Source: an uncultured Pseudomonadota bacterium | GTDB taxonomy: Bacteria; Pseudomonadota; Gammaproteobacteria; Burkholderiales; SG8-39 | DNA: 64,000 nucleotides | Direction: 5' to 3' | Assembly: GCA_903829815.1 (NCBI GenBank) | Contig: CAIKRR010000014.1 | Location: forward strand, 209,024-273,023 | Shown: piece by piece, positions 6,407 to 53,334 of the stretch | Position numbering within the stretch: the first letter of the stretch is position 1 | Layout of the letters: each line of letters begins with the position of its first letter | Made by a program: the position numbers and the translations under genes | The notes under the pieces: model-generated | The model's input: only the letters and a program-made list of their open reading frames with translations | Told to the model about the DNA's origin: nothing | The model's database searches: none

Positions 6407-6446
6407 TACCAGTCAGGGCAGACCACTGATTATACGGGTCGAGCGC

Positions 6447-7337: not shown

Positions 7338-7340
7338 CGA

Positions 7341-8756: not shown

Positions 8757-8806
8757 TGTTGCTGCTCCATGAACGGATGTCGTACGGGTAGATGCGATTG
8801 AACCGC

Positions 8807-9976: not shown

Positions 9977-10081
9977 CGCAATGCTCGCGCCTTGTCTTGG
10001 ATGAATGGAAGAACCGCCCAAGCCCCCGGGGAAAACCCGGGCCATGCTATGGCAGCCGTATGCGCCGCTTTCGACATAACC

Positions 10082-10936: not shown

Positions 10937-11811
10937 TCCGCATCGCACTGGCCCTTCTGTGGCTCGCTCATTGGCTGCCGCTGCCCGTCCTGGCGCCGCT
11001 CGGACGCGGACTGGGGCTCCTGGGCTACCTGCTGGTCGTACCACGACGGCGGGTCTGCCTCACCAACCTGAGGCTGTGCTTTCCAGACGTGTCGGAGCGC
11101 GAACGCCGTGCGCTCGCGCGCGCCCACTTCCAGTGGTTTGGTCGCTTCGTGCTCGAACACGGCATCCAGTGGCATGCATCCCCTGAACGCGTGCGCAGCC
11201 TCGTCCAGCTCGAAGACGAGCATCATGTGCGATCGCTGCAGGCTTCGGGCCAGCGGTTCTTCTTTCTTGCGCCGCACTTTCTCGGGCTGGACCTGGGCGC
11301 GGTACGTCTGATGATGGATTTCGAGGCCTGCGGCATGTACACCCGGCAGAAGAACCGGGTGCTCGATGCTGCGGTACTGGCCGGAAGGATGCGCTTTGCC
11401 ATCGGCAGGACGCGCCTGTTCTCGCGGCAGGACGGTTTCCGGTCGATCATCCGCGCAGTCCGCCAGGGACTGGTCTTCTTCTACATGCCCGACATGGATC
11501 TGGGCGCCCGCGACTCGCTCTTCGTGCCTTTTTTCGGGGTACCCACCGCTACCATCACCGGGCCATCACGCCTGGCCCAGCTCGCCGACGCCGTGGCGGT
11601 GCCAGTGGTCACGCGCATCCTGCCCGGCGGGGCGGGTTACCGGGTGAAGTTCTTCGAGCCCTGGCAGAACTTTCCGAGTGGCGACCTCGAAGCAGATGCC
11701 CGACGCATCAATGCCTTCATCGAAGAACGCGTGCGCGAATTGCCTGAACAGTACTACTGGCTGCACAAGCGATTCAAGACGAGGCCGCCCGGCGAAGCCC
11801 GGTTCTACTGA
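10933..11811 (+). CDS. Lipid A biosynthesis acyltransferase, LpxL/LpxM family, paralog 2
   Basis: Contains [16 protein letters not shown], an H-x4-D motif (APHFLGLDLG) and C-terminal PEQYYWLHKRFK. ATGA overlap with paralog 1. Confidence 0.8.
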   Translation: MIRIALALLWLAHWLPLPVLAPLGRGLGLLGYLLVVPRRRVCLTNLRLCFPDVSERERRALARAHFQWFGRFVLEHGIQWHASPERVRSLVQLEDEHHVRSLQASGQRFFFLAPHFLGLDLGAVRLMMDFEACGMYTRQKNRVLDAAVLAGRMRFAIGRTRLFSRQDGFRSIIRAVRQGLVFFYMPDMDLGARDSLFVPFFGVPTATITGPSRLAQLADAVAVPVVTRILPGGAGYRVKFFEPWQNFPSGDLEADARRINAFIEERVRELPEQYYWLHKRFKTRPPGEARFY

Positions 11812-11859
11812 GGCTTGCAGCAGGATCCCGGCCAGGATCCGGGCCGGGCCCCACGCCGT

Positions 11860-12894
11860 TCAGACCCGCACGAACCGGGTAATCCCATCGCCATCGAGCA
11901 CACGCACGACACGCCCGCCGTGCACGAGATGGTTCAGATGGGCCAGCGTCTCGCCGATCGCAAACCAGATCTGATGCCCATCAAGCGGGCGCCGAAACAG
12001 CGTGCTCATGAGTTCTGCCGCGGTGTGCGCCGTGCCGCAGGCCTGGGTCAGTTCATCGAGCCGCGCAGTGTGATGCGCCTGCAAGGCATCGATCCGCACA
12101 TGCAAGCCGCGGAACGGCAGGCCGTGCGAGGGCAGCACCAGCGTCTCGGGGTCGAGCACCCGATAGCGTTCGAGCGAACGCAAGAAGTCTCCCAGCGGGT
12201 CACTGTCGGGCTGGCTGGCGTGCACCGACACATTGGTCGAAATGCGCGGCAGCACCATGTCCCCGGCAATCAGCACGCGATCGGCCTGACGGTGCAGCAT
12301 CATGTGCTCGGGCGAGTGGCCATCGCCGCGAATCGGGCACCACAGGTCGCTACCCAGCGCAATCGGTTCGCCCTCGATGATGCGCCGGTAGTGCGTCGGC
12401 ACATCGGGCACCATTCGCCGATAGCTGCTGCCGGGGGCCTCCAGAAGCGCATCACTGCGCGAGTCATCGAGACCGTGCCCGCGGAAGAACTCGCGCAAGG
12501 CCACATCGGTATAGCCAGCCACCTGGGCGCAGGTGGCATGGGCCAGCAGATACTCGGCTTGGGCCACATGCATCATGACGCCAGCACGTTCACACAGCCA
12601 GGCGGCATTGCCGATGTGATCGGGATGAAAATGCGTGACGATGACCCGCGACACTTCGCGGCCTCGCAGCGGGCCGTCAAACAGGGCTTGCCACAACTGG
12701 CGCGTACCCTCATCAGCGATGCCGCAATCGACAATCGCCACGCGATCGCCCTCGTCGATCAACCACAGGTTGATGTGATCGAGTGAAAACGGCAAGGGCA
12801 TGCGCAACCATCGAACACCGGGTGCGACATCGAGAAGCACACCCGGTGGGGGCGGGGAATCGATCAGGTAGCGGATACCGGCAGGGGCATTCAT
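11860..12894 (-). CDS. MBL-fold metallo-hydrolase
   Basis: HxHxDH motif (THFHPDHIGNAAW) in a 344-aa product starting MNAPAGIRY. The 568-aa ORF-track version adds a Cys/Arg-rich extension that runs antisense into the thiolase gene. Confidence 0.8.
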   Translation of the reverse strand: MNAPAGIRYLIDSPPPPGVLLDVAPGVRWLRMPLPFSLDHINLWLIDEGDRVAIVDCGIADEGTRQLWQALFDGPLRGREVSRVIVTHFHPDHIGNAAWLCERAGVMMHVAQAEYLLAHATCAQVAGYTDVALREFFRGHGLDDSRSDALLEAPGSSYRRMVPDVPTHYRRIIEGEPIALGSDLWCPIRGDGHSPEHMMLHRQADRVLIAGDMVLPRISTNVSVHASQPDSDPLGDFLRSLERYRVLDPETLVLPSHGLPFRGLHVRIDALQAHHTARLDELTQACGTAHTAAELMSTLFRRPLDGHQIWFAIGETLAHLNHLVHGGRVVRVLDGDGITRFVRV

Positions 12895-13134
12895 CAGCAG
12901 GGCTCGGGGAGGGTCGGTTACCCGAGTCGGGACCGACCCGGATTCTCTCACACCACCCGGCAGGCACCCCGGGCGACGCTTTGCATGTCGCCGTCCCGCC
13001 TCACCCGGCCCTCTACCCTGCCCCCGGTCGACGACTCGTCGCCGCCCCCTTGCCAACGAAGGCGGAGTGGGCGACCCTAGGCACCCCTGCCCCCCGGCAT
13101 TCCTGACAGGGCGCACCCAGCAAGGAGCACACCG

Positions 13135-14319
13135 ATGAATGATGACCCTGTCGTCATTGCAGCTGCCGCACGCACGCCGATCGGCGGCTTCCAGGGCGAA
13201 CTCAAGGACCTCGCAGCGCCTGAACTGGGAGCGGTAGCCATCCGCACAGCGCTGTCGCGCTCGGGGCTCGAACCCAGCCAGATCGACGAAGTCATCATGG
13301 GCTGCGTGCTGGCCGCAGGCCTGGGCCAGGCACCGGCCCGACAGGCGAGCCTCGCAGCAGGCCTGCCGCTGGCGGCCGGTTGCACCACAGTGAACAAGAT
13401 GTGTGGTTCGGGCCTCAAGGCAGCCATGCTCGGGCACGACGCACTGCTGGCCGGCAGCGCCAGGGTCGTTGTTGCCGGCGGCATGGAATCGATGTCGCGC
13501 GCACCCTACCTCCTGCCGAAGGCGCGCAGCGGCTACCGCCTCGGGCACCAGAGCGTGCAGGACCACATGTTCCTCGACGGGCTTGAAGATGCCTATGATC
13601 GCGGCCGCCTGATGGGCTCATTTGCCGAAGAGTGTGCAGGCCAATTCGGCTTCTCGCGCCAAACCCAGGACGACTTTGCGCGCGCCTCGCTCGAGCGCGC
13701 GCTGGAAGCGACACGACAGGGCGCCTTCGGCTGGGAGATCGCTCCTGTTGCCTTGGGCAACAAGGCCGGCGCAGCAAGCCTGACCGATGACGAGCAGCCA
13801 GCTCGGGCACGTCCGGATCGCATCGGCACCTTGAAGCCCGCCTTTCGACCCGACGGCACCGTGACGGCGGCCAATTCGAGTTCGATCTCCGACGGTGCCG
13901 CGGCACTGGTGATGACACGAGCATCCACCGCACGAAGCCTCGGACTTGCGCCCATCGCCCGAGTGCTCGGGCATTCAACCCACGCCCAGGCACCGGCTCT
14001 CTTCACGACGGCGCCGGTCGGTGCCATCGAGCGCCTGCTCGCCCGCGTGGGCTGGCAGATTGCCGATGTCGACCTCTATGAGATCAACGAGGCTTTTGCC
14101 GTGGTAACGCTTGCGGCGATGCAGGCGTTGAAGATCTCCCATGATCGGGTCAACGTGCATGGCGGGGCCTGCGCCCTGGGTCATCCGATCGGTGCATCGG
14201 GCGCTCGCATCCTCGTCACCCTCATCGGTGCGCTGCGCAGACGCGACGCGCGACGTGGCGTTGCCGCGCTGTGCATCGGTGGTGGCGAGGCCACCGCGAT
14301 GGCCATCGAACTTTGCTGA
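13135..14319 (+). CDS. Acetyl-CoA C-acetyltransferase (thiolase II)
   Basis: Contains the active-site Cys motif VNKMCGSGLKA, NVHGGACALGHPIGASG and CIGGGEATA. Confidence 0.92.
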   Translation: MNDDPVVIAAAARTPIGGFQGELKDLAAPELGAVAIRTALSRSGLEPSQIDEVIMGCVLAAGLGQAPARQASLAAGLPLAAGCTTVNKMCGSGLKAAMLGHDALLAGSARVVVAGGMESMSRAPYLLPKARSGYRLGHQSVQDHMFLDGLEDAYDRGRLMGSFAEECAGQFGFSRQTQDDFARASLERALEATRQGAFGWEIAPVALGNKAGAASLTDDEQPARARPDRIGTLKPAFRPDGTVTAANSSSISDGAAALVMTRASTARSLGLAPIARVLGHSTHAQAPALFTTAPVGAIERLLARVGWQIADVDLYEINEAFAVVTLAAMQALKISHDRVNVHGGACALGHPIGASGARILVTLIGALRRRDARRGVAALCIGGGEATAMAIELC

Positions 14320-14355
14320 AGCCCTGCGCCCCTCCACCTTTCGAGAACGACCACC

Positions 14356-15021
14356 ATGCCCCACGCCCTCATCATCGGTGCCTCACGCGGCATCGGCCTT
14401 GAACTGGCTCGACAGTACCTGGCCGATGGCTGGGAGGTCAGCGCAACGGCACGCACTGCCGCGGCCCTGACCGCGCTGGATGCAATGGGGGCGACACCAT
14501 GCGCACTCGATGTGACCGACGCTGCCTCAGTCGAGGCCTTTGGCCGCTTCGTGAGCGCCGCCCGCTACGACGTGGCCATGCATGTGGCAGGCGTCATGGA
14601 GCGAGGCGATGCCAGCACGGCACCCAGCGTGACGGCATTCGATGCGGTCATGCATGCCAATGTGCTGGGCGCGATGCGGATCATCCCCATCGTTGCACCC
14701 CGTGTGGCAGCGGCCCGCGGATGCTTTGGCTTCATCTCCAGTCTGCTGGGCTCGGTAGCCAACGCCGATTCAAGCGTGACCTGGCTCTATCGGGTATCGA
14801 AAAGCGCCCTCAACATGGCGGTGCGCGCAGCCCGTCAGGATTACCCCGGTGCAACCCTGGTGCTGCTCTCGCCGGGGTGGGTCCGGACCGACATGGGCGG
14901 CGCCAGTGCCCCGGTGAGTGTCGCCGACAGCGTCACCGGACTGCGCCGGGTCGTCGCGAGCCTGAGCCCGGAGGACACCGGCACGTTCCGCAATTACGAG
15001 GGCCGCACCCTGCCCTGGTAG
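14356..15021 (+). CDS. Short-chain dehydrogenase/reductase (SDR) family oxidoreductase
   Basis: Cofactor motif IIGASRGIG and catalytic YRVSK (YxxxK). Confidence 0.8.
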   Translation: MPHALIIGASRGIGLELARQYLADGWEVSATARTAAALTALDAMGATPCALDVTDAASVEAFGRFVSAARYDVAMHVAGVMERGDASTAPSVTAFDAVMHANVLGAMRIIPIVAPRVAAARGCFGFISSLLGSVANADSSVTWLYRVSKSALNMAVRAARQDYPGATLVLLSPGWVRTDMGGASAPVSVADSVTGLRRVVASLSPEDTGTFRNYEGRTLPW

Positions 15022-15095
15022 GCGCGGCCATGACCGATGACAGGCAGTATCTGACGCGGCGCGGCCAAGGATCGGTAAGATGAATCATGCTGAGT

Positions 15096-15127
15096 GCCCT
15101 GTCGACGGCCCTGTCGACGACCCTGCG
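15096..15127. repeat. 12-bp tandem repeat x2.6 upstream of a Bug gene
   Basis: gccctgtcgacg / gccctgtcgacg / accctgcg. Each full unit carries a GTCGAC palindrome. The repeat ends 15 nt before the ATG at 15142. Confidence 0.8.
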
Positions 15128-15141
15128 CCAAGAGATCTGAA

Positions 15142-16164
15142 ATGAAAAGACCCTGTATGCACGTCCGGGCAACGCTGGCGGCAAAGCTTGCAGCAACGCT
15201 GATCGCACCACTGGCGGCAACAGCGGCCTGCATCACCCTTTGGGCCGGCTGCGTCCAGGCGCAGGACTATCCGCACAAGCCCGTACGACTGGTGGTGCCG
15301 TACGCGGCAGGCGGCTTGCCCGACACCATCGCACGCACGCTGGCGCAACGTCTTGCCGATGACCTCGGACAGCAGTTCGTGATCGACAACAGGGCTGGCG
15401 GCGGCGGTCTGCCGGCGTGCGAATTCGTGGCGCGGTCGGCTGCCGATGGCTACACGCTGCTCGTAGGCGATGTGAGCCAGATGTCGATCAACCCCTTCAT
15501 CTACAAGGTCCTGCCCTACGATCCTGTTCGCGACTTCTCTCCGATCAGCCTGCTCGGGCTGTCGCCGCTATTCCTCGTGCTGCATCCCTCGGTGCCGGCC
15601 AACACCTTCCAGGAACTGGTTGCCTACGCCCGTGCCCACCCGGGCGAGTTGAACTACGGTTCGTCAGGCTCAGGCAGCATCCATCAGCTGGCGGTCGAAG
15701 CATTGAAGCACGCGTTGGGCCTTGACCTCGTGCACATCCCGTTCAAGGGCACCGGACAGTCGGTGCCGGCGCTCCTGGGTGGGCAGGTCTCGATGCTCTA
15801 CTCGGCGCTGCCGGCGATCGCACCCCATGTGAAGACCGGCAAGGTGAAACTGATTGCGGCCAGCACGCCTGCACGCTCGCCCCAGGCACCCGATGTCCCG
15901 ACGATCGCGGAGCTGGGCATTCCCGACTACGACTATCCGGCCGAAATCGGCCTGCTGGCTCCGATCGGCACGCCGCCCGCGATCATCGCGCGACTCAATG
16001 CGGCCGTGGTGCGCGCGCTCAAGCACCCGGAGGCGCGCGCGCGCTTCGCCGCGCTGGGCATCGACCCGGTCGGCGGCAGCCCCGAGGCGTATGGCGAGCG
16101 CATCCGTACCGGCATGGACAAGTATGCTCGTATCGTGCGCATCGCCGGCGTGCGGGCAGACTGA
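15142..16164 (+). CDS. Bug/TctC-family substrate-binding protein
   Basis: Signal peptide, then QDYPHKPVRLVVPYAAGGLPD. ATG at 15142; an ATG at 15157 is the alternative. Confidence 0.85.
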   Translation: MKRPCMHVRATLAAKLAATLIAPLAATAACITLWAGCVQAQDYPHKPVRLVVPYAAGGLPDTIARTLAQRLADDLGQQFVIDNRAGGGGLPACEFVARSAADGYTLLVGDVSQMSINPFIYKVLPYDPVRDFSPISLLGLSPLFLVLHPSVPANTFQELVAYARAHPGELNYGSSGSGSIHQLAVEALKHALGLDLVHIPFKGTGQSVPALLGGQVSMLYSALPAIAPHVKTGKVKLIAASTPARSPQAPDVPTIAELGIPDYDYPAEIGLLAPIGTPPAIIARLNAAVVRALKHPEARARFAALGIDPVGGSPEAYGERIRTGMDKYARIVRIAGVRAD

Positions 16165-16165
16165 C

Positions 16166-16612
16166 ATGGCAACCTTGGCGCCAGGCTGGAAAGCCGTAGC
16201 AATGGGTGTGCTGGCCGACTTCGGCGGCACACTGGTGAGCGGTACCGCACTGTCCATTGCGGCAGCACTTCTGGCCGGGGAGCCCGCGACGCCGGGTGGC
16301 GAACTGGCCGCCGCCCAGGCCGTGCTCGAATCCGACCTCTGGGCCGTCAGCACGATGATTGCGGGCTCCGCCTGTACGGTACTCGGGGGCTATGTGGCAG
16401 CGCGCGTCGCAGGCCGCGCCGAATACGCCTTTGGCGTAACCACCGGTCTGGCCGTACTGATCATTGGCGAAGTCCTGTCGGCCGGCACCGACGCGAGCCC
16501 GCCCCTTGCGATGCGCCTCGTCGGTTGGGTGATCACTCTGCCGCTGGCAATGCTTGGGGCGCACCTTCGCATGCTGCAAAAAGAACGGACCACCGGGAAA
16601 CGTCGCCCATGA
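16166..16612 (+). CDS. Hypothetical small integral membrane protein
   Basis: 148 aa with 3-4 hydrophobic helices and a GC3-rich codon pattern. Its ATG lies 1 nt after the Bug stop, and its own stop forms an ATGA overlap with the next gene. I recognised no family. Confidence 0.55.
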   Translation: MATLAPGWKAVAMGVLADFGGTLVSGTALSIAAALLAGEPATPGGELAAAQAVLESDLWAVSTMIAGSACTVLGGYVAARVAGRAEYAFGVTTGLAVLIIGEVLSAGTDASPPLAMRLVGWVITLPLAMLGAHLRMLQKERTTGKRRP

Positions 16613-17217
16613 GTGAACCGATCGAATTCTTCTTCGACTTCTCCTCGCCCTACGGCTACATCGCCGGGGAGTGCATTGACGAAATCGCTGCGCGATACGA
16701 TCGAACCGTCCGCTGGCAGCCAATTCTGCTGGGCGTGATCTTCAAGACCTCGGGTGCAGCCCCGTTGCCATCGCTCCCCCTGAAGGGCGCATACGCACTG
16801 CGCGACTTCGTGCGCAGTGCCCGGTTTCACGGCGTGAGTTACCAGCACCCGGTGCGCTTCCCTGTCTCGGGCATCGCACCGACGCGGGCTTTTCATGCAG
16901 TGGCAAGCGCTGACGCCGCCACGGCAACGACGCTGGCCCGAACGCTGATGCGCGCCTACTTCGTGCAAGGCATCGATATCTCGGACCCCGAAGCCACGAT
17001 CGCAGTGGCCGCTGGCGCCGGGTTGGGCCTCGAGGCAGACACGCTGCGCCAGGCGATGGCCAGTCAGGCGATCAAGGACCGTGTTCGCGCAGCCACCGAT
17101 GCGGCCATCGGCCGCGGCATCTTTGGCTCACCGTTTACCCTGGTCGATGGCGAGCCCTTCTGGGGCGCCGACAGGCTCGATCAGATCGAGCGCTGGCTCG
17201 CTACCGGCGGCTGGTAG
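16609..17217 (+). CDS. 2-hydroxychromene-2-carboxylate isomerase family (DsbA-like) protein
   Basis: Contains MSEPIEFFFDFSSPYGY and C-terminal FWGADRLDQIERWL, characteristic of the HCCA isomerase/DsbA-like family. Confidence 0.8.
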   Translation: MSEPIEFFFDFSSPYGYIAGECIDEIAARYDRTVRWQPILLGVIFKTSGAAPLPSLPLKGAYALRDFVRSARFHGVSYQHPVRFPVSGIAPTRAFHAVASADAATATTLARTLMRAYFVQGIDISDPEATIAVAAGAGLGLEADTLRQAMASQAIKDRVRAATDAAIGRGIFGSPFTLVDGEPFWGADRLDQIERWLATGGW

Positions 17218-39993: not shown

Positions 39994-41170
39994 GCACCAC
40001 CATCTGGCCACGTGATCGCCAGTGCAGCGCTGCAGCCGAAGCGGCTGCCAACGAGCCCACAGCCACCACGCCCAGCCAGCCCTGGGCCGCAAAGGCATAA
40101 CTGGCCAGCAGCGCCCCCAGTCCGTTGCCACCAAAGGTATGCAGCATCAGCAGCATGTTGACCCGGGCACGGGCTTCGGGCTCGATGCCCAGCAGAAAGG
40201 TCTGGTTGGCCACCAGGCTCGTGCGAATGCCGAAGTCAAGCAGCATCACCCCGACCACGAGCGCCGCCACCGACCAGGGGCCGAAGGCAAAGGTCGCGTA
40301 GGCGGCCAGCACGAGGAGGGTGCCCGCCAGCACGGCCTTGGCAGAACCGCCCCGATCGACCCAGCGCCCGACGGGTGCCGCGATCAGCACGCCAGCCGCC
40401 CCGGGTATGCCGAAAAGACCGGCAACTGCGCTCCCCAACTGATGATCGGCCGCCAGCATCGGTGCCAGCATCGCCCAGAAGCCGCCGTAGCCGATGCCAA
40501 GCAAGCCCTGGACCCGCGAGGTGCGATTGACCACCGGATAGCGACGCATGAGACCCACGAGCGACCCGAGCAAAGCGGCATAGCCAAGCTGGCTCGTGCC
40601 GCGGGCGCTGGGCAGCATGCGCACGATCACCGGCAGCACGCAGGCAACCAGCACCGCGCCAAACCCGAACCCGGCACGCCAGCCAAACCAGCCGCTCACC
40701 ACCCCGCCCAGCAGGCGCCCGGTGAGGATGCCCAGCAGCATCCCCGAGAGCACCGTGCCGATCACCGCACCACGCCGCGCAGGCGGCGTGAGCTGTGCAG
40801 TGAGGGCAACCAGGTGCTGGGAGGTCGACGCCCCCATGCCCACGACCACGCTTGCCACGACCAGCACCCAGAACGCGTTGGTGACCGCCATGATCGCAAG
40901 AGCAACCGTCACCGCACTCACCTGCGCAAGGATCAGGTGGCGCTTGTCGAATACGTCGCCCAGCGGCGCCAGAAAGAGAACGCCCGCGACGAAGCCGAAG
41001 GTGGTGGCGGTTGGAATCCAGCCCAGCTCCCGTGCTCCGACATCAAACTCGCGGCCGATCACATCGAGCATCGGGGTGTAGAAGTGCATGGTCGAGGCGG
41101 CGACCAGCATGGTGATGAAGATCACCCCTATCAGGCGCTGCGACAGACCGTCACCAGTTGAATGGCTCAC
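39980..41170 (-). CDS. MFS transporter
   Basis: 12 predicted TM helices and the MFS loop motif PLGDVFDKRHL. Confidence 0.8.
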   Translation of the reverse strand: MSHSTGDGLSQRLIGVIFITMLVAASTMHFYTPMLDVIGREFDVGARELGWIPTATTFGFVAGVLFLAPLGDVFDKRHLILAQVSAVTVALAIMAVTNAFWVLVVASVVVGMGASTSQHLVALTAQLTPPARRGAVIGTVLSGMLLGILTGRLLGGVVSGWFGWRAGFGFGAVLVACVLPVIVRMLPSARGTSQLGYAALLGSLVGLMRRYPVVNRTSRVQGLLGIGYGGFWAMLAPMLAADHQLGSAVAGLFGIPGAAGVLIAAPVGRWVDRGGSAKAVLAGTLLVLAAYATFAFGPWSVAALVVGVMLLDFGIRTSLVANQTFLLGIEPEARARVNMLLMLHTFGGNGLGALLASYAFAAQGWLGVVAVGSLAAASAAALHWRSRGQMVVPTGQ

Positions 41171-41259
41171 ACCCGATGCTCCCTGAAAAGGGTGATTCGC
41201 GCTCCGAAGGGGCGCGAGTCAGGCATCATAACGGCCCCGAACCCCATGGAGAGAATCCC

Positions 41260-42252
41260 GTGAGCAAGTTGCAATTGAGCCTTGCCTGTGCCGGCTACGA
41301 CCGCACGCGCGCCCTGTTCGATGGTCGCGTGTCGATCGACGGCGTCGATATCATCCCGACGGTGCTCGAACCCGAAGAGGCCTTTCACCGTGCGTTCAAG
41401 TACGGCGAGTTCGACATCACCGAGATATCGATGAGCAGCCACACGGTGATGACCGCCCGTGGCGAAGCACAGTACGTCGGCGTCCCGGCCTTTCTCTCCA
41501 GGGTATTTCGCCACTCGGGCATCTACATCAACACCTCGAAGGGCATCACCCGGCCCGAAGACCTGCGCGGCAAGATCATCGGCGTGCCCGAGTACCAGAT
41601 CACCGCCAACGTCTGGATCCGCGGCATCCTCTCCGATGACTATGGCGTATCGGCCGATCAGGTCCACTGGCGCCGCGGCGGTATCGAGCAGCCGGGCCGT
41701 GGCGAGCGCTCGCCGATCAAGCTCCCCGCCTCGATCGACCTGCAGCAGATTGCCGACGACAAGACGCTCTCGGGCATGCTCGAGTCAGGTGAAATCGACG
41801 CCATGATCAGTGCCCGCGCGCCCTCGTGCCTGCTGCGTGGATCGCCCAATGTGGCCCGGCTCTTCCCGAACTTCAAGGACGTCGAGGCCGACTACTTCAA
41901 GCGCAGCCGTCACTTCCCGATCATGCACATGGTGGGCATCCGCAAGTCGCTGGTGGAAAAGCACCCGTGGCTGCCGGTCAATGTCTACAAGGCCTTTGCC
42001 GAAGCCAAGCGCCTTGCCATCAACGACCTGAACGAGATCAACATGCTGCTCATCACCCTGCCCTGGGTGGTGCATGAGTACAACACCACGCGCGAACTGA
42101 TGGGCGAAGACTTCTGGCCCTACGGCTTCAAGGAAAACCTCCATTCGCTCGAAGTGTTCACCCGCTACCACCACGAGCAGGGGCTGTCCTCGCGCAAACT
42201 CGCGCCTGAGGAACTGTTCACGCCGTCGGTGATCGATCTGAGCCGGATCTGA
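41260..42252 (+). CDS. 4,5-dihydroxyphthalate decarboxylase-like protein (SBP-fold enzyme, no signal peptide)
   Basis: GTG start preceded by GGAGAG. The product VSKLQLSLACAGYDRTRALFDGRVSIDGVD...EFDITEISMSS matches the PhtD-like family, which is often annotated as an ABC substrate-binding protein. Confidence 0.72.
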   Translation: MSKLQLSLACAGYDRTRALFDGRVSIDGVDIIPTVLEPEEAFHRAFKYGEFDITEISMSSHTVMTARGEAQYVGVPAFLSRVFRHSGIYINTSKGITRPEDLRGKIIGVPEYQITANVWIRGILSDDYGVSADQVHWRRGGIEQPGRGERSPIKLPASIDLQQIADDKTLSGMLESGEIDAMISARAPSCLLRGSPNVARLFPNFKDVEADYFKRSRHFPIMHMVGIRKSLVEKHPWLPVNVYKAFAEAKRLAINDLNEINMLLITLPWVVHEYNTTRELMGEDFWPYGFKENLHSLEVFTRYHHEQGLSSRKLAPEELFTPSVIDLSRI

Positions 42253-44535: not shown

Positions 44536-45543
44536 TCAATCGGCCTTGATGTGGGCGTCAGCAATCACGCGCCCCCAGCGCGCCAGATCACGCCGCAAGG
44601 TCTCTGCCAGGCGCTCGGGAGGCCCACCCACGGGCGCGATGCCCTGGCGCGCCATCTGGGCACGCACATCGGGCCGCATGGCTGTCTCGGTCAGTGCCGC
44701 GTTGATGCGCGCAACGACCAGGCCAGGTGTGGCTGCCGGCGCGAACACCGCGTACCAGGTGTCCACCACGAGCCCCGGATACCCGGCTTCAGCGAGCGTG
44801 GGCACATCGGGAAAAGCGGGTTGCCTGCGATCGCTCAGCACGGCCAGCATGCGCAGCCGGCCATTGGCCGCGAAGGGGGCGATGGTCTGGAGCGATGCCA
44901 CCATGGCCTGGACGTGCCCCGCCACCAGGTCAGCGACCGCACCACCTGAACCCTTGTAGGGCACATGCACGAGGTCAATGCCTGCCTCGAGCTTGATGAG
45001 TTCCATCGTGAGGTGCTGCGGCGCCCCGTTGCCGGTCGATGAGTAGTAGAGCGAGCCCGGGGAGGCCTTCGCCAGATCGACGAATTCGCGAACGCTGCGG
45101 GCGTTGATGCCGGGGTTCACCATGAGCGCCATGCTGCTTGCCGCCACCACAGCCACCGGCGTGAAGCTCTTCACCGGATCGAATGGCAAACTCGCCATCA
45201 GCGGTGGATTGGTGGCAAACGATGTTGCCGTGAAGAGCAGCGTGTAGCCATCCGGGTTGGCGCGGGCGACCGCATCGGCACCCAGATTGCCGCTGGCACC
45301 GGCGCGGTTCTCGGTGACCACGGGTACCTTCCAGGCCTGGGCGAGATGCGGCGCGAGCAGGCGCGAGAGGATGTCAGCGCCGGTGCCCGGGGTGTAGGGC
45401 ACGATGAACTGAACCGTCCGCACGGGCCATGCGGCGTTGGCAGCCTCCTGCGCCTCGGCGGGTGCGCCTGGAAGCATCATCGCTGCGAAAGCCGCAGTGA
45501 TCAGCGCGGCGACTGATCGGCGAGCACCCTGTCGCAGGCACAT
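44536..45543 (-). CDS. Bug/TctC-family substrate-binding protein
   Basis: Signal peptide, then VRTVQFIVPYTPGTGAD. ATG at 45543. Confidence 0.85.
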   Translation of the reverse strand: MCLRQGARRSVAALITAAFAAMMLPGAPAEAQEAANAAWPVRTVQFIVPYTPGTGADILSRLLAPHLAQAWKVPVVTENRAGASGNLGADAVARANPDGYTLLFTATSFATNPPLMASLPFDPVKSFTPVAVVAASSMALMVNPGINARSVREFVDLAKASPGSLYYSSTGNGAPQHLTMELIKLEAGIDLVHVPYKGSGGAVADLVAGHVQAMVASLQTIAPFAANGRLRMLAVLSDRRQPAFPDVPTLAEAGYPGLVVDTWYAVFAPAATPGLVVARINAALTETAMRPDVRAQMARQGIAPVGGPPERLAETLRRDLARWGRVIADAHIKAD

Positions 45544-45718
45544 CCGCAAGGGCTCCGGACACGACGGGCCACACCGTGCTGGATCAAGGGTCGATCGGAC
45601 AGGGACTCGAGGGCTCATTGAAGACCAGGCAGATCAGAGGGGCGCTCGCAACCGTCGGGGCGCAGGGGCGTATTCTACGGCGGTCGAGAAAATGCCGCCG
45701 CCTGCAGGGAAATCCACC

Positions 45719-46819
45719 ATGAGCCCGTCACAGCCGATCACCTCCACCAGCACCTCCACCAGCACCTCCAACGCTTCCTCCAACGCTTCCACCAGCACCT
45801 CCGCCTCAGCCGAGGCTCTGGCCCAGTTCTCGCGCGGGATTTCACCCTTGTCGGTCATGCCCTTGTGGGAACGCACCGCACGCATGAAACCCGGGTCGAT
45901 CTGCGTGCCGCATCAGTGGCGCTATGCCGACCTGCGCGGGCCGCTGCAGGAGGCCTGCAGCCTGATCAGCAAGCGCGATGCAGAACGACGGGTACTCGTT
46001 CTGGAGAACCCGAGCATGCGCGGCTCCACCTTTGCGACCCCGACGCTCTACGCCGGTCTGCAGATCATCACGCCGGGCGAAATTGCCCCCTCGCACCGCC
46101 ACTCGCCGGGCGCGCTGCGGTTCATCATCGAAGGTGAAGGCGCCTACACCGCGGTCGAAGGCGAGCGCATCGACATGCATCCGGGTGACTTCATCGTCAC
46201 CCCGAACTGGACATGGCATGAGCACGGCAATCTGGGCGAGCAACCGGTCGTCTGGCTCGACGGGCTCGACACGGCGATGGTGGCGCTCTTTGGCGCGATG
46301 TTTCGCGAGGATGCGCCGAGCGAGAGCTACGCCCCGGAACACCCTTCGGGGGAAAGCGCGGCGCGCTTCGGCAGCAACATGCTGCCGGTGGATTACGAAG
46401 GACAAGCGCACACCTCGACACCATTGCGGGTGTACCGCTACGCCCAATCACGTGCGGCACTGGCCGATCTCGCCCGCGCCCGCGCCGCGGACGCGGTGCA
46501 TGGTTACAAACTGCGCTACGCCCATCCGGGCACCGGCGCGCATCCCTTCCCGACCATGGCGGTCTATCTGCAACACCTGCCGGCAGGCTTTTGCGGCAGC
46601 CCATGGCGCTCGACCGAAAGCCTCGTCTGCTGCGTCGTCGAGGGAGCAGCAACCGCGGTGCTCGGTGACCACCGATTCGAGCTTGGCCCACGCGACCTCT
46701 TCGCGATACCACCGTGGGTCGAGGCGCGCCTCGAGTCCTCGGCTGGGGCCGTCATTTTCAGTTACGGCGATCGGGCAGCGCAGGAGGCCTTGGGTCTGCT
46801 GCGCGAGGAGCGCCTGTAG
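45719..46819 (+). CDS. Gentisate 1,2-dioxygenase-like bicupin with Ser/Thr-rich N-terminal extension
   Basis: Contains PLWERTA...AERRVLVLENP...HRHSPGALRFIIEGEG...GDFIVTPNWTWHEHGN, typical of GDO. ATG at 45719; 45692 is the alternative. Confidence 0.8.
   Translation: MSPSQPITSTSTSTSTSNASSNASTSTSASAEALAQFSRGISPLSVMPLWERTARMKPGSICVPHQWRYADLRGPLQEACSLISKRDAERRVLVLENPSMRGSTFATPTLYAGLQIITPGEIAPSHRHSPGALRFIIEGEGAYTAVEGERIDMHPGDFIVTPNWTWHEHGNLGEQPVVWLDGLDTAMVALFGAMFREDAPSESYAPEHPSGESAARFGSNMLPVDYEGQAHTSTPLRVYRYAQSRAALADLARARAADAVHGYKLRYAHPGTGAHPFPTMAVYLQHLPAGFCGSPWRSTESLVCCVVEGAATAVLGDHRFELGPRDLFAIPPWVEARLESSAGAVIFSYGDRAAQEALGLLREERL
45739..45811 (+). repeat. In-frame 12-bp-type coding repeats encoding a Ser/Thr/Asn/Ala-rich stretch
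   Basis: cacctccaccag x2, followed by tccaacgcttcc x2-like and accagcacctcc units. The encoded peptide is TSTSTSTSTSNASSNASTSTSASA. Confidence 0.85.
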
Positions 46820-48062: not shown

Positions 48063-48120
48063 TCATCAGACCTGCCGTCCCACGATCAGGTCTGCCGTCC
48101 CCTCATCAGGTCTGCCGCCC
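48063..48120. repeat. 20-bp tandem repeat x3 spanning the GMC oxidoreductase stop codon
   Basis: The units are tcatcagacctgccgtccc(a) / cgatcaggtctgccgtccc(c) / tcatcaggtctgccgccc. The stop (48086..48088) lies in the middle unit. Confidence 0.85.
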
Positions 48121-49813
48121 GCTCCGCAATCATCAGCGTCGGCGAATTGGTATTGCCCGAGCTGATGGTGGGCATCACCGACGCGTCCACCACGCGTAAC
48201 CGTTCGATGCCGCGCACCCGCAACTCGCTGTCGACCACCGCCAGTGGGTCGTCACGACGCCCCATGCGACAACTGCCGACCGGATGAAAGATGGTCGTTC
48301 CGACATCGCCCGCAGCTCGCTCGAGGTCAGCATCACTGACCAGGTGCGGGCCCGGCAGGAACTCCTCGGGGCGGTAGCGCGCGAGGGCACGACTTTCAGT
48401 CACGATCCGCCGCGTGAGCCGCAATGAATCGACGGCAACCCGACGATCTTCCGCCGTCGAGAGGTAGTTGAGCCTGATGGCGGGCGGCTCATGCGCATCG
48501 CTCGATCGCAGGCGCACGCTGCCGCGCGACGTCGGCTGCAGATTGCACACGCTCGCCGTGAACGCGGGGAACCGGTGCAGCGGTTCCCCGAAACGATCGA
48601 GTGACAGGGGCTGCACATGAAACTCGATATTCGGACGCACCTTCGAGGCATCGGACATCGCGAAGGCGCCCAGTTGCGATGGGGCCATGGCAAGCGGGCC
48701 GCTACGCGTCAGCGCATATTGCAATCCCATCCTCGCCTTGCCCCACCACGAATGCACCTGTTCATTGAGCGTCGGCACACCACTCACCTTGAACGCCATG
48801 CGCAGTTGCAGGTGATCCTGCAGATTGGCGCCCACCCCGGGCAGATCGTGCCGCAGATCGACACCGTGCGACTGCAGCACATCGCGCGGTCCGATGCCCG
48901 AGAGCTGCAGGATATGCGGGCTGCCGATGGCGCCGGCCGCAAGTACCGTCTCGGCGCGTGCAGCCGCCGAACGCACCACGCCATCCTGCTCGAAGACAAC
49001 ACCCGTACAGCGCGCCCCATCGAACTGCAGCTTGTGCACCAGGGCACCGGTGAGCACCGTCACATTGCCCCGGGCGATGGCAGGACGCAGGAACGCACGC
49101 GAGGCACTCCAGCGCACGCCGCGTCGCTGGTTCACTTCGAATCGTGCGACGCCGTGGTTGTTGCCGCGATTGAAGTCATCGGTGGCCGGTATGCCGAATT
49201 CGGTGGCTGCCTCGGTGAACGCATCCAGCAGTTTCCAGGAAAGCCTCTGCTTCTCCACGCGCCACCGACCCCCGCTGCCATGAAAGGCAGAGGCACCGCG
49301 CCAGTGGTCCTCGCTGCGCCGAAAGACCGGCAGCACGTTCTCCCACGACCAGCGACTGTCCCCCGTCACCGTCGCCCAGCCGTCGTAGTCCTCAGTCTGG
49401 CCACGCAGGTAGAGCATCGCATTGATCGATGAACAACCGCCCAGCACCCGGCCGCGCGCGTAATTGATCGAACGGCCATTGAGTCCGGCCTCGTCGACGG
49501 TACGAAAGCACCAGTCGGTGCGCGGATTGCCGATGCAATAGATGTAGCCCACCGGAATCTTCACCCAGATCCAGTCATCCGGAGGCCCGGCTTCGAGAAC
49601 GAGCACACGCACGGTCTGATCGGCCCCGAGCCGCTCGGCCATCACGCAACCGGCCGTGCCCGCCCCGATGATGATGTAGTCGAACTCACCGAGCCGCTGT
49701 GCTTCCGAGCCATCGGAAGAAGTATTGACGATCTGCACCACCGCTTGCCCCCAGTCAGACGAATCGACCCCGCTACGGCCCCGACCACTTGAATCGTGTT
49801 GCGCGCCGTTCAA
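48086..49813 (-). CDS. GMC-family FAD oxidoreductase (choline/alcohol dehydrogenase-like)
   Basis: Contains FDYIIIGAGTAGCVMAERL, GGCSSINAMLY and C-terminal PTISSGNTNSPTLMIAERAADL. In-frame GTGs at 49741 and 49738 are plausible shorter starts. Confidence 0.88.
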   Translation of the reverse strand: MNGAQHDSSGRGRSGVDSSDWGQAVVQIVNTSSDGSEAQRLGEFDYIIIGAGTAGCVMAERLGADQTVRVLVLEAGPPDDWIWVKIPVGYIYCIGNPRTDWCFRTVDEAGLNGRSINYARGRVLGGCSSINAMLYLRGQTEDYDGWATVTGDSRWSWENVLPVFRRSEDHWRGASAFHGSGGRWRVEKQRLSWKLLDAFTEAATEFGIPATDDFNRGNNHGVARFEVNQRRGVRWSASRAFLRPAIARGNVTVLTGALVHKLQFDGARCTGVVFEQDGVVRSAAARAETVLAAGAIGSPHILQLSGIGPRDVLQSHGVDLRHDLPGVGANLQDHLQLRMAFKVSGVPTLNEQVHSWWGKARMGLQYALTRSGPLAMAPSQLGAFAMSDASKVRPNIEFHVQPLSLDRFGEPLHRFPAFTASVCNLQPTSRGSVRLRSSDAHEPPAIRLNYLSTAEDRRVAVDSLRLTRRIVTESRALARYRPEEFLPGPHLVSDADLERAAGDVGTTIFHPVGSCRMGRRDDPLAVVDSELRVRGIERLRVVDASVMPTISSGNTNSPTLMIAERAADLMRGRQT

Positions 49814-49859
49814 GCAACCCGGTCACACCGTTGTACACCGCAGGGCACGACCGATGCCG

Positions 49860-49899
49860 ATGTCATCGCATTGCCATCATTCTGTCATCAGCGTGTCTC
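49860..49899 (+). promoter_or_regulatory. Tandem Pho-box-like array (four 7-nt repeats at 11-bp phasing)
   Basis: The sequence is aTGTCAT-cgca-TTGCCAT-catt-CTGTCAT-cagc-GTGTCTC. Matches to the CTGTCAT heptamer are 6/7, 5/7, 7/7 and 4/7. TGCAAT (49910..49915) lies 10 nt downstream as a possible -10, and the ATG is at 49942. Confidence 0.55.
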
Positions 49900-49941
49900 G
49901 CCCGAAAGGTGCAATACACCAACCCTTTCAGGCAAGGCTCG

Positions 49942-50748
49942 ATGAACGCGCGCGACACCCAATCGGAAGGCCTCATCCACCATCGTGCGATCTGGCTCTC
50001 GGACATTCACCTGGGCACCCGCGGCTGCCGCGCCGCCGATCTGCTGGAGTTTCTCCGGGTGCATGATGCCGATGTGATCTACCTGGTCGGCGACATCGTC
50101 GATGGCTGGCAGATCAAGCGCTCGTGGTACTGGCATCAGAGCCACAACGACGTGGTGCAGAAGATTCTGCGCAAGGCGCGCAAGGGTACCCGGGTGATCT
50201 ACGTCCCCGGCAACCACGACGAAGGCCTGCGCCACTTCACCGGCATGGACCTCGGACGCATCGAGATCGAACCCGAAGCCGTCCACACCACGCTCGATGG
50301 GCGTCGCTTGCTGGTCACCCACGGCGATCTCTTCGACGGAGTGATCCAGCGCGCGAAGTGGCTCGCCTATCTGGGCGACACCCTCTACATGCTGGCGCTC
50401 GAACTCAACCGGCACTTCAACCGCCTGCGGCAGCGCATGGGGCTGCCCTACTGGTCGCTCTCGCAGTACCTGAAACATCAGGTGAAAAATGCCGTCAGTT
50501 ACATCAGCGATTTCGAACAGGCCGTCGCCCACGAGGCGAAGCGCCGCGGTTTCGATGGCGTGGTGTGCGGCCATATCCACCAGCCGGCACTGCGCATGAT
50601 CGACGGCGTGCTGTACGCCAATGATGGCGACTGGGTCGAGAGCCTCACTGCGCTGGTTGAGACCACGTGCGGGGAACTGCAGATCGTACGGGCAGCCCCG
50701 ATCACCCATTCAGTGCCCGCAGCACGAGCGGCAGCAATGAGCGCCTGA
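49942..50748 (+). CDS. Calcineurin-like metallophosphoesterase, LpxH-related (PlcP-like phospholipase C candidate)
   Basis: Metallophosphoesterase motifs SDIHLG, GDIVDG, GNHDE, THGD and GHIHQP. GNHDE replaces the GNRD that I recall for bona fide LpxH. ATG at 49942. Confidence 0.8.
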   Translation: MNARDTQSEGLIHHRAIWLSDIHLGTRGCRAADLLEFLRVHDADVIYLVGDIVDGWQIKRSWYWHQSHNDVVQKILRKARKGTRVIYVPGNHDEGLRHFTGMDLGRIEIEPEAVHTTLDGRRLLVTHGDLFDGVIQRAKWLAYLGDTLYMLALELNRHFNRLRQRMGLPYWSLSQYLKHQVKNAVSYISDFEQAVAHEAKRRGFDGVVCGHIHQPALRMIDGVLYANDGDWVESLTALVETTCGELQIVRAAPITHSVPAARAAAMSA

Positions 50749-50813
50749 CTGCGAAGCAGCAAGGCGTGCATGACCGGCAGCGGGCATCAAGGCGCTCAAA
50801 CCGGACAAGCAAA

Positions 50814-50831
50814 GTGTAACGACCCTGTCAC
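50814..50831 (+). promoter_or_regulatory. Single Pho-box-like element upstream of the OlsB-like gene
   Basis: GTGTAAC-gacc-CTGTCAC has 7+4+7 architecture, and the second repeat matches CTGTCA(C/T). TACCAT (50842..50847) lies 10 nt downstream. The element is 58 nt before the ATG at 50889. Confidence 0.35.
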
Positions 50832-50888
50832 AAACCATCCCTACCATCGATCTGTTGGTGATGGATCGGGATCCACGCGAGAAGAGCC

Positions 50889-51731
50889 ATGCGGCACATG
50901 ACGGACCCAGGACTGCAAATGCGCCTGAACGAAAGCGGCACCGACCTGCGGATCGAGTTCGCTGCAACGCGTCAGGATCTGCTCGCAGCGCAGCGTCTGC
51001 GCTACCAGGTGTTTGCCGAGGAATTCGGTGCTGAATTCGATTGCCGGATTCCGGGCATCGACGCTGACATCTTCGATGCCTATTGCGATCATCTGCTGGT
51101 GCGAGATCGTCACAGTCTCGAAGTGGTGGGCACCTATCGCATGTTGCGTCCAGAGCAGGCGCGCGCGCTGGGCTGCTCATACGCCGACAGCGAGTTCGAT
51201 CTGAGCGGGCTTGCCGCCATGCGGCCCTGGATGGCTGAACTCGGTCGTTCCTGCGTTGCGCCGGGCTATCGAACCGGAGCCACCATACGACTGCTCTGGT
51301 CGGGGATCGGGCGCTTCATCCAGTCGCGCGGCTACCGTTACCTCATCGGTTGCGCAAGCGTGTCGACCCGCGATGGTGGCCATGTGGCTGCCAGCCTCTA
51401 CACCGCGCTCATGGGTCAACAGGCCGAGGGCGAAAGCTGGGGGGCGCGCCCTCACAAGCGACTGCCACTGGAAAACCTGCGTTGTGACCTGCCCACTGCC
51501 ACCCCGCCACTCATCAAGGGCTATCTGCGCTGCGGCGGGCGAATCATCGCCGAGCCTGCCTGGGACACCGACTTTGGCACGGCCGACTTCCTGATGATGC
51601 TCGACCTCGCGACGATGGCACCACGCTATGCACGGCACTTTTTCGGCGATGCGCCCCTTGGCTTGCAGGACCCTGCAGCAGTCATCCCGCGCGAGCCCTA
51701 CCTCGGCGAGCTGGAGCCGATCGCCGCATGA
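50889..51731 (+). CDS. GNAT-family N-acyltransferase, OlsB-like (ornithine/amino-acid lipid N-acyltransferase family)
   Basis: Contains AAQRLRYQVFAEEFGAE, CDHLLV, VGTYRML, SEFDL, ELGRSCVAPGYR, LIGCASV and PPLIKGYLRCGG, which together match the OlsB/hemolysin-like Acetyltransf_5 architecture. Alternative ATGs at 50898 and 50919. Confidence 0.78.
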   Translation: MRHMTDPGLQMRLNESGTDLRIEFAATRQDLLAAQRLRYQVFAEEFGAEFDCRIPGIDADIFDAYCDHLLVRDRHSLEVVGTYRMLRPEQARALGCSYADSEFDLSGLAAMRPWMAELGRSCVAPGYRTGATIRLLWSGIGRFIQSRGYRYLIGCASVSTRDGGHVAASLYTALMGQQAEGESWGARPHKRLPLENLRCDLPTATPPLIKGYLRCGGRIIAEPAWDTDFGTADFLMMLDLATMAPRYARHFFGDAPLGLQDPAAVIPREPYLGELEPIAA

Positions 51732-51788
51732 GAGCGGTCCAATGAATTCGGGCAAGCCACTCAAGGCGTTGCCAACCGGAGATCAAGC

Positions 51789-52502
51789 ATGAAACCGAGT
51801 GTGATCATCGTCGAGGATGACGCAGCGATTCGCGACCTGCTGCAATACAGCTTCGAGCGCGCCGGCTTTCGGGTACTACCTGCGGCTTCGGCGGAGCGAG
51901 CCCTCGAACTGTTGAAAGAGCGCCTGCCCACGGTGCTCGTGATCGACTGGATGCTGCCTGCGCTATCGGGTCTTGCGCTGGTGGAGAAGTTGCGTCGAAC
52001 GAGTCGTACCGCCGATCTGCCCCTGCTGATGCTGACCGCACGAGGCAGCGAGCAGGACCGCGTAGGCGGGCTCGAAGCGGGCGCCGACGACTACGTCGTC
52101 AAGCCTTTCAGTCCGAGCGAACTGATCGCACGGGTGAACGCACTGGTCAGGCGCCGCGCCCCTGAATTTGCCGGTGGCAGCATTACGCTGGGCGCACTCG
52201 AACTGGACAGCGATGCACGCACGGCCACCGTCGATGGCACTCGAGTTGCGCTGCGCCAGGTGGAGTTCAGGCTGCTCAAGCTTTTCATGGCACACCCCGA
52301 TCGGGTGTTCACCCGCAACGAACTGCTCGACCGTGTCTGGGGCGAGGACGTGTTCGTCGAGGAACGCACGGTCGATGTGCATATCCGGCGGGTTCGCCTC
52401 GCCCTGGGCAAGCCCTACCGCGACCTCATTTCGACGGTGCGTGGCGGCGGCTACAAGCTGGATCCTGCGATGCTCGAAGCCGCCGAGGCCAGCCTCGCCT
52501 GA
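51789..52502 (+). CDS. OmpR/PhoB-family response regulator (PhoB-like)
   Basis: Receiver domain (VEDD, VIDWMLPALSG, MLTARG, KPF) and winged-helix domain (VWGEDVFVEERTVDVHIRRVRLAL) closely follow the E. coli PhoB pattern. No histidine kinase gene is adjacent. Confidence 0.9.
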   Translation: MKPSVIIVEDDAAIRDLLQYSFERAGFRVLPAASAERALELLKERLPTVLVIDWMLPALSGLALVEKLRRTSRTADLPLLMLTARGSEQDRVGGLEAGADDYVVKPFSPSELIARVNALVRRRAPEFAGGSITLGALELDSDARTATVDGTRVALRQVEFRLLKLFMAHPDRVFTRNELLDRVWGEDVFVEERTVDVHIRRVRLALGKPYRDLISTVRGGGYKLDPAMLEAAEASLA

Positions 52503-52635
52503 AAATTCAAGGCCTGCCCCGCTCGCCAGGAAGCCCCGTCGCGGCGTTCAAAGTCCTCACCTCGATCGATCGGGGCTTGGGCCTGCGACTGATTGAATCC
52601 ATAATAGGGGCCACCCACTAGCGGAGACTGCCCTG

Positions 52636-53334
52636 ATGAATGGAATCGTGGTTCGCAACATACAGCGCGCCGATGCAAGCGTGGTCGAGAGTCTTGGCCG
52701 CTTTGGCGTCGCCACCATCCACGAAGCCCAGGGCCGCAGCGGGCTCATGAAGACCCATATGCGCCCCATCTACGAGGGCGCGCGCACCGTCGGAACGGCA
52801 ATCACGGTGCTCACGCATCCGGGAGACAACTGGATGCTGCATGTCGCCATCGAGCAGATTCGTCCCGGCGACGTCGTCGTGGCCGCCTGCTCGGCCGACA
52901 ACACCGATGGCATGTTCGGCGAATTGCTCGGCACCCAGTTCAAGACACACGGTGCACGCGGCCTGATCCTGGATGCAGGCTGCCGCGACGTCAGCGATCT
53001 GAAGAAGCTTGGCTTTCCGGTGTGGTCGCGTGCCATCTCGGCCAAGGGCACCGTCAAGTCGACGGTCGGCTCGGTAAACATTCCGGTGGTCTGCGCAGGC
53101 GCGCTCGTCAACCCGGGCGACGTGATCATCGCCGACGATGATGGCGTGGTCGTGGTGCCACGTGCCGATGCAGCACGCGTTGCTGCCGAAGCCGAAGCCC
53201 GTGAAGCCAAGGAAGCGATCGCGCGTGGGCACTACGCCGCCGGCGAACTGAGCCTGGACCTGAACAACATGCGCGAAGCCCTCGAGCGCGCCGGCCTGCG
53301 CTACGTCGACGATCTGCCTCACGGGGGTGCCTGA
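52636..53334 (+). CDS. RraA-fold 4-hydroxy-4-methyl-2-oxoglutarate / 4-carboxy-4-hydroxy-2-oxoadipate aldolase-like protein
   Basis: Contains VATIHEAQGR, GELLGTQFKTHGARGLILDAGCRD, and the LigK/GalC-type C-terminal extension. Confidence 0.85.
   Translation: MNGIVVRNIQRADASVVESLGRFGVATIHEAQGRSGLMKTHMRPIYEGARTVGTAITVLTHPGDNWMLHVAIEQIRPGDVVVAACSADNTDGMFGELLGTQFKTHGARGLILDAGCRDVSDLKKLGFPVWSRAISAKGTVKSTVGSVNIPVVCAGALVNPGDVIIADDDGVVVVPRADAARVAAEAEAREAKEAIARGHYAAGELSLDLNNMREALERAGLRYVDDLPHGGA

Follow-up and report, generated by a model that had tools for sequence, protein, structure and literature searches.

The exchange of phospholipids for phosphorus-free lipids is a major phosphorus saving in bacteria, which also affects antibiotic tolerance and virulence, and it has so far been regarded simply as part of the response that the global PhoR/PhoB system governs. 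Three adjacent genes in a 64,000-nucleotide stretch of DNA from an uncultured Pseudomonadota bacterium of the Burkholderiales (lineage SG8-39; contig CAIKRR010000014.1, positions 209,024 to 273,023; the whole stretch is hereafter called the window) raise the question of whether such lipid renovation can be encoded as one compact unit together with a regulator of its own. The genes encode an LpxH-related phosphoesterase, an OlsB-type N-acyltransferase of the GNAT family, and a PhoB-like response regulator; these three observations are confirmed. Taken as a whole, the explanation that we consider probable is that they form one Pho-box-driven operon, plcP-olsB-phoB-like, which would renovate membrane lipids under phosphate starvation; the core of this interpretation is supported, and the interpretation in its entirety is partly supported. 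Both the enzymes and the phosphate control are of known kinds. The novelty lies in the joining of plcP to an olsB-like gene without the glycosyltransferase gene agt and, above all, in an orphan clade of PhoB-like regulators tied to plcP. According to an initial annotation, made from the sequence of the stretch, the trio is not known to have been described as a unit, and our literature search agrees with it, as no description was found of the plcP-olsB-regulator trio or of such a regulator; a published survey sorted the surroundings of plcP into six types, and both olsB and regulator genes are absent from all six.

Gene order and control region

The three co-directional genes fill positions 49942-52502 on the plus strand, where the initial annotation had also placed them. 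The first gene, plcP (49942-50748; 268 amino acids, aa), encodes a calcineurin-like metallophosphoesterase with the Pfam domains Metallophos and Metallophos_2; the second, the olsB-like GNAT gene (50919-51731; 270 aa; PF13444), has an in-frame alternative start at 50889, the start at 50919 being favoured because the nearest homologues are 270 aa long; the third encodes the PhoB-family response regulator (51789-52502; 237 aa; Response_reg and Trans_reg_C). The GNAT and regulator genes are separated by 57 bp in the window and overlap by 4 bp in the related locus L091. No terminator-like site was found in a scan across 49700-52750, which covers all three genes.

Upstream of plcP, a Pho-box array of four TGTCA-type repeats in 11-bp phase is located at 49860-49903 on the plus strand, with its last base 39 nt before the plcP start codon. 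The array reads ATGTCATcgca TTGCCATcatt CTGTCATcagc GTGTCTC, and its four heptamers in 11-bp register have the layout of two tandem Pho boxes. Such an array had been described in the initial annotation, and it stood up to comparison with shuffled DNA: scored against four phased CTGTCAT repeats, it reached 22 out of 28, whereas the entire window, shuffled 200 times under a first-order Markov model and scored on both strands, never gave more than 20. Two-repeat matches occur four times in the window, and three of them overlap 49860-49903. Two of the repeats, at -82 and -60 counted from the plcP start, are kept at the same distance in diverged loci (L087, L007, L174, and L002). Both they and an element with AAT, some 10 nt beyond the last repeat, are conserved between loci with only about 75% protein identity. 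In the window, this position is taken by the candidate -10 element TGCAAT (49910-49915, plus strand), whose AAT core is invariant in a five-locus promoter alignment. A simple sigma-70 scan gave no promoter in the region between plcP and its divergent neighbour, a GMC-family oxidoreductase gene, and its sole match fell at 51064-51092, inside the acyltransferase gene; a promoter in which the Pho box takes the place of the -35 element would be expected to give no intergenic match. According to the initial annotation, the GMC gene shares this control region. The two genes do border on the same intergenic DNA, but the direct repeats point to plcP and away from the GMC gene.

In the spacer between plcP and the GNAT gene, GTGTAACgaccCTGTCAC (50814-50831, plus strand) makes up a second Pho-box-like site, of two repeats. 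It forms a conserved island in comparison with L087, the rest of the spacer being indel-rich and diverged. This site may serve as an internal promoter that responds to phosphate and drives the acyltransferase and regulator genes. The earlier view that all three genes follow Pho boxes is borne out. Strong Pho boxes also precede the agt-plcP-GNAT-regulator operon of L091 and the genes at the olsB position in loci L004 and L006, the latter in agreement with the Pho boxes before olsB that were predicted in publications for Burkholderia sensu lato.

The two enzymes and the proposed pathway

The first gene encodes a PlcP-type enzyme, a predicted intracellular phospholipase C that would release diacylglycerol, and not LpxH, because it scores far below the LpxH equivalog models (39.9 bits with NF003743, cut-off 134; 38 bits with TIGR01854, cut-off 190), carries GNHDE where solved LpxH structures have GNRD in the alignment, and has orthologues in plcP-agt-dagK operons. 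The calcineurin-type motif set (DxH, GD, GNH(D/E), H, GHxH) is complete, and no variation was seen across 24 homologues at D21/H23, G50/D51, G90-N91-H92-D93-E94, H127, and G210-H213. The top ten structural matches of the predicted structure (pLDDT 80) are all LpxH, and the model has a helical insertion at the position of the LpxH lid. The scores with the LpxH models, part of the searches that the initial annotation had proposed, the motif alignment, and the LpxH-like fold all agree with its description of a PlcP-like, LpxH-related protein with GNHDE instead of GNRD; its remark that PlcP is often mis-annotated as LpxH also fits, as the homologues are mostly labelled LpxH in databases.

Its sequence shares 66-67% identity over about 250 aa with the plcP products of the Burkholderia cepacia complex; the values are 70% for Cupriavidus and 64-69% for Polynucleobacter. 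A scan for plcP with one genome per species returned 80 loci, in nearly all of which a GT4 glycosyltransferase gene (agt) lies directly downstream of plcP and is followed by dagK. Previous studies showed that the plcP-agt-dagK operon of B. cenocepacia K56-2 is induced by phosphate depletion and that plcP is required there for glycolipid formation; PlcPs of the B. cepacia complex were reported to be more than 84% identical to the characterised B. cenocepacia PlcP.

The second gene product matches PF13444 (E = 1e-33, 116 bits), a domain for which the initial annotation had proposed a search. Its alignments with the two NCBIfam OlsB models span the whole protein and score 155-158 bits, where the cut-offs are 320-350. 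This shortfall may stem from the make-up of the models, which were built from alphaproteobacterial sequences, since the betaproteobacterial proteins that lie next to ppx/ppk and are named ornithine N-acyltransferase by UniRef miss the cut-offs by the same margin (153-191 bits). The domain match, the full-length alignment, and the scores in the range of these ppx/ppk-position proteins uphold the placement of the GNAT in the OlsB family, which many proteobacteria induce when phosphate is limiting. The window gene is not at the ppx/ppk position itself; a member of the same clade, L092, has its GNAT-regulator pair exactly there. The structural model of the GNAT (pLDDT 85) is best matched by the acyl-homoserine lactone synthases BjaI, MesI, and LasI; the match at rank 20 is FeeM, an N-acyl amino acid synthase. 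Neighbour-joining places the cluster-linked GNATs in a single clade whose depth is like that of other betaproteobacterial groups; the clade looks like an orthologue in a deep lineage. Ornithine is the most likely substrate.

The following pathway, each step of which is drawn from homology and synteny, may be proposed. Under low phosphate, a phosphorylated PhoB-type activator would bind the tandem boxes at 49860-49903, in place of a -35 element, and recruit RNA polymerase; PlcP would cut the phosphorylated head group off glycerophospholipids, so that phosphorus is freed and diacylglycerol is left; the GNAT would begin the making of a phosphorus-free aminolipid by transferring a 3-hydroxyacyl chain to the nitrogen of an amino acid, which is most likely ornithine; the second acyl chain would come from an OlsA encoded at an unlinked site; and the co-transcribed regulator would act on these same boxes to strengthen expression of the operon that encodes it, with a possible internal boost of expression from the second box at 50814-50831. 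The regulator should bind these boxes because its phospho-acceptor residues, PhoB recognition helix, and sigma-70 contact loop are all kept. As no kinase gene lies beside the regulator gene, its phosphorylation would have to take place in trans, for which PhoR is the obvious candidate.

Several points weigh against this explanation. The second Pho box, at 10/14, is weak when taken alone. Within the 64 kb there is neither an agt, btaAB, or dagK gene to use the diacylglycerol, according to tblastn, nor an OlsA, according to a motif search, and the pathway is therefore incomplete within the window; the tblastn searches of the window gave no match for phoR (one query), phoU, agt, btaA, btaB, or dagK, and the PlsC/OlsA-type motif pair was absent from all window open reading frames (ORFs) of at least 150 aa in what is a crude test. 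The regulator scores just under the PhoB cut-off, and its target range may have drifted. In addition, orthology to the characterised PlcP runs via sister species of K56-2, and orthology to OlsB runs via position-equivalent genes.

The regulator clade and the competing explanations

Homologues of the regulator form a tight clade of 71-100% identity, comprising about 15 clusters, all of them from metagenomes or metagenome-assembled genomes (MAGs); outside the clade there are a few sequences at 58-62%, followed by a plateau of ordinary PhoBs near 55%. The clade occurs in five gene orders: plcP-GNAT-regulator divergent from the GMC gene (the window, L087-L089, and the P0001 contig); plcP-regulator divergent from the GMC gene (L174 and L176); plcP-agt-GNAT-regulator divergent from the GMC gene (L002); agt-plcP-GNAT-regulator next to ppx/ppk, with the 4-bp overlap of GNAT and regulator genes (L091 and L092); and the regulator gene divergent from plcP-btaA-btaB (L007). 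The survey of conservation proposed in the initial annotation has thus shown that the linkage of plcP and the regulator recurs in relatives in several arrangements. Judged from these arrangements, plcP and the regulator would be the constant core, and olsB, agt, or btaAB would be interchangeable cargo for the making of phosphorus-free lipids. Neither agt nor btaAB is present in the window and its relatives at 87-93% identity; in sister lineages, one or the other occupies this slot.

The regulator also has remoter relatives. The one in L177 (2-4028), at 60% identity, follows an agt gene and precedes histidine phosphatase and phytase-like genes, and the one in L090 (2-6176), at 62%, follows ppk and a short pstS-like gene; phoR is present in neither locus. 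In L090, a GNAT at 60% identity lies across ppx from the regulator relative.

The best NCBIfam model for the window regulator is PhoB (TIGR02154), with 289.5 bits against the cut-off of 296.2, and its overall identity to E. coli PhoB is 44%. The phospho-acceptor set D10, D53, T83, and K105 is invariant in comparison with E. coli PhoB; R193-T194-V195-D196-V197-H198 together with R200, R201, and R203 (RTVDVHIRRxR), the TVRG motif, and W184/G185 are identical to it. From structural work on PhoB bound to DNA, we take RTVDVHIRRxR to be the DNA-recognition helix, TVRG the wing with its arginine, and W184/G185 the sigma-70 contact loop. The alpha-1 helix of the receiver domain differs from that of canonical PhoBs.

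We lean towards the view that the regulator is an extra paralogue of PhoB. The strongest competitor, which we regard as rather doubtful, holds that it is the only PhoB of its lineage and has moved from a phoR/phoU/pst context into the lipid operon. Gene context speaks against such a relocation, as phoR or phoU was found in the flanks of 0 of 11 clade loci versus 65 of the 80 ordinary PhoB loci listed; these control loci came from a metagenome scan with the regulator, in which the best match among the matches listed was 52% identical and no clade members were added. The model scores point in the same direction: the eight plcP/agt-linked regulators that were compared with TIGR02154 all scored below its cut-off (256-289.5 bits), whereas the PhoBs beside phoU or phoR all scored above it (six of six, 308-346 bits). 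In a neighbour-joining tree, moreover, the clade is sister to a canonical pstSCAB-phoU-phoB-phoR group and does not fall inside it.

Sequence divergence, on the other hand, is what a relocated single copy would be expected to have. The window and the Polynucleobacter locus L043 share 69% identity in PlcP and 49% in the regulator, and two canonical loci, L102 and L043, share 72% in PlcP and 52% in PhoB; in Polynucleobacter, too, PhoB is less conserved than PlcP. The identities of GNAT and regulator drop together through the relatives (86/87, 66/77, 60/62, and about 53/55%), as in vertical single-copy genes, and the ppx and ppk products of L090/L092, a related lineage, share no more than 52-56% identity with their counterparts in other betaproteobacteria, which indicates that the lineage branches deeply. 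Elsewhere, plcP is found near canonical pho regulators: inside phoB...phoR in L102, after phoR in L083 (a Usitatibacter MAG), and about 6 kb from phoR-phoB-phoU in Polynucleobacter. An argument that 55% identity to canonical PhoBs is too low for an orthologue was dropped, because canonical PhoBs differ just as much between loci whose PlcPs are similarly distant. Of the term "orphan PhoB paralogue" used in the initial annotation, the PhoB-like character and the missing adjacent kinase gene are retained, and the word paralogue is not secured by divergence, which equals that of orthologues at this depth.

The product of the GNAT offers the next alternative. Instead of an ornithine lipid precursor, the enzyme might make another N-acyl amino acid lipid (with glutamine, lysine, or another amino acid), a lyso-lipid, or a free N-acyl amino acid, which we consider unlikely. 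Such a product would be in keeping with the scores under the OlsB equivalog cut-offs, with the separate clade of the cluster-linked GNATs, and with the breadth of PF13444, which also takes in enzymes such as GlsB (PMC6298996). However, the position-equivalent OlsB-type proteins of betaproteobacteria lie equally far below the cut-offs, and a sister locus retains the usual olsB position beside ppx. The lack of an OlsA in the window, from which the initial annotation had derived a possible lyso-aminolipid, agrees with the crude motif search, but the olsB-position loci L004 and L006 have no adjacent PlsC-type gene either. Since olsA is thus unlinked at the usual betaproteobacterial olsB position too, its absence is normal for the group and says nothing about a lyso-lipid product.

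Less likely still is the alternative in which a kinase different from PhoR controls the regulator, with a trigger other than, or besides, phosphate, such as envelope, pH, or temperature stress. The regulator has no cognate kinase in cis in any of the gene arrangements, its receiver alpha-1 helix is unlike that of canonical PhoBs, and ornithine lipid synthesis is described as responsive to several stresses in one report (PMC12971839). Against this stand the DNA-recognition residues, which equal those of PhoB, the classic Pho boxes of the operon, and the phosphate genes that adjoin related loci (ppx, ppk, and the pstS-like and phytase-like genes). The last alternative, that the first gene is a true lipid A LpxH and the three genes are neighbours without a common function, recommends itself only by the name given to many homologue entries and by the LpxH-like predicted fold, and it is extremely improbable in view of the model scores and the replaced GNRD motif, by which a genuine LpxH identity was ruled out, the position of the orthologues in plcP-agt-dagK operons, and a linkage that survives several rearrangements.

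Known systems and genomic surroundings

With regard to known systems, one close counterpart of the proposed plcP-olsB-phoB-like operon is the plcP-agt(-dagK) operon, which is known from S. meliloti (PlcP), SAR11, Phaeobacter, P. aeruginosa, and B. cenocepacia (BCAL2364-2366). Both start with a PlcP gene (the window protein and its Burkholderiaceae orthologues share 66-70% identity), have an upstream Pho box, and carry a gene for phosphorus-free lipids directly downstream of plcP. Unlike that operon, the window has an OlsB-type acyltransferase in the place of the diacylglycerol-using glycosyltransferase, is without dagK, and includes a PhoB-like regulator. The Pho-regulated olsB/olsA system of ornithine lipid synthesis likewise has a PF13444 N-acyltransferase with a Pho-box-like site upstream, which in the window is the weak two-repeat box at 50814-50831; it differs in that the olsB-like gene of the window is joined to the plcP operon and has no olsA nearby, and its substrate is a prediction.

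Among cultured bacteria, Polynucleobacter has plcP and olsB as co-directional neighbours with a PhoB gene a few kb away. In L043, L049, L058, and L080 (about 8000-16700), plcP-agt-dagK-olsB is followed by ppx, phoR, phoB, phoU, and pstB on the opposite strand. The PhoB there is canonical (317-318 bits with TIGR02154), phoR and phoU are present, and so are agt and dagK; in comparison, the window version is reduced to plcP-olsB-regulator and is set among unrelated catabolic genes. A PhoB without its own phoR inside a specialised module has also been reported for the extra pst-phoU-phoB copies (PhoB1/PhoB2) of arsenic islands (PMC3834237), which differ from the window in that they keep pstSCAB-phoU and serve arsenic metabolism; the window regulator is without pst and phoU and is tied to lipid genes. 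An island of this kind was encountered in L179 (B. pseudomallei plasmid p1, NZ_CP018385.1, 254390-267076), where arsenic-resistance genes are accompanied by pstSCAB-phoU-phoB and no phoR. The PhoB met in a plasmid search for a canonical Burkholderia reference was such an arsenic-island copy and is unsuitable for that purpose.

The metagenome contig Ga0136614_10000347 (L102), which came to light in the scan that supplied the ordinary PhoB loci, has the order phoU-phoB-plcP-agt-phoR at 6279-11030. Its PlcP is 68% identical to that of the window, its phoB is canonical (308.5 bits with TIGR02154), and its agt was recovered as two tblastn segments and may be frameshifted.

The gene divergent from plcP encodes a GMC-family flavin adenine dinucleotide (FAD)-dependent oxidoreductase (48086-49813, minus strand); its translation probably begins farther downstream than the TTG at 49813. 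It scores below the cut-offs of the choline dehydrogenase models (571 against 605 and 483 against 732). The gene is divergent from plcP at every GMC-containing locus of the lineage (the window, L087-L089, L002, L174, L176, and the P0001 contig) and is not a neighbour of plcP in Burkholderia, Cupriavidus, or Polynucleobacter; it can be counted as part of the module only tentatively. On the 3' side of the regulator gene lie a LigK-type aldolase gene and then a TctC-type receptor gene, and the wider neighbourhood in the window consists of ordinary catabolic genes. In the window ORF at 45437-46819 (plus strand), a low-complexity Ser/Thr/Asn/Ala tract precedes a cupin domain; its homologues in syntenic contigs are about 350 aa long, so the real start is probably well downstream. 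The ORF at 41158-42252 (plus strand; 364 aa) has strong coding-type GC3 (G+C content at third codon positions) and no Pfam match at 1e-5. An Rfam scan of the window gave no RNA family at gathering score.

For the annotation of related genomes, these results mean that "LpxH" labels in Burkholderiales-like genomes often hide PlcP. For the control of lipid renovation, a regulator that stays tied to plcP through rearrangements while the cargo changes suggests that this process can have its own control layer, and the window offers a test case with a small operon, a defined 44-bp operator, and a regulator that has the DNA-reading residues of PhoB but a diverged receiver. Tentatively, the regulator might even found a separate orphan PhoB-like subfamily that serves a portable lipid-renovation cassette with fixed plcP and regulator and swapped olsB, agt, or btaAB, a possibility that we hold with some reserve. 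If this is true, uncultured and probably phosphorus-limited freshwater or soil bacteria could control the remodelling of their membranes apart from the rest of the Pho regulon.

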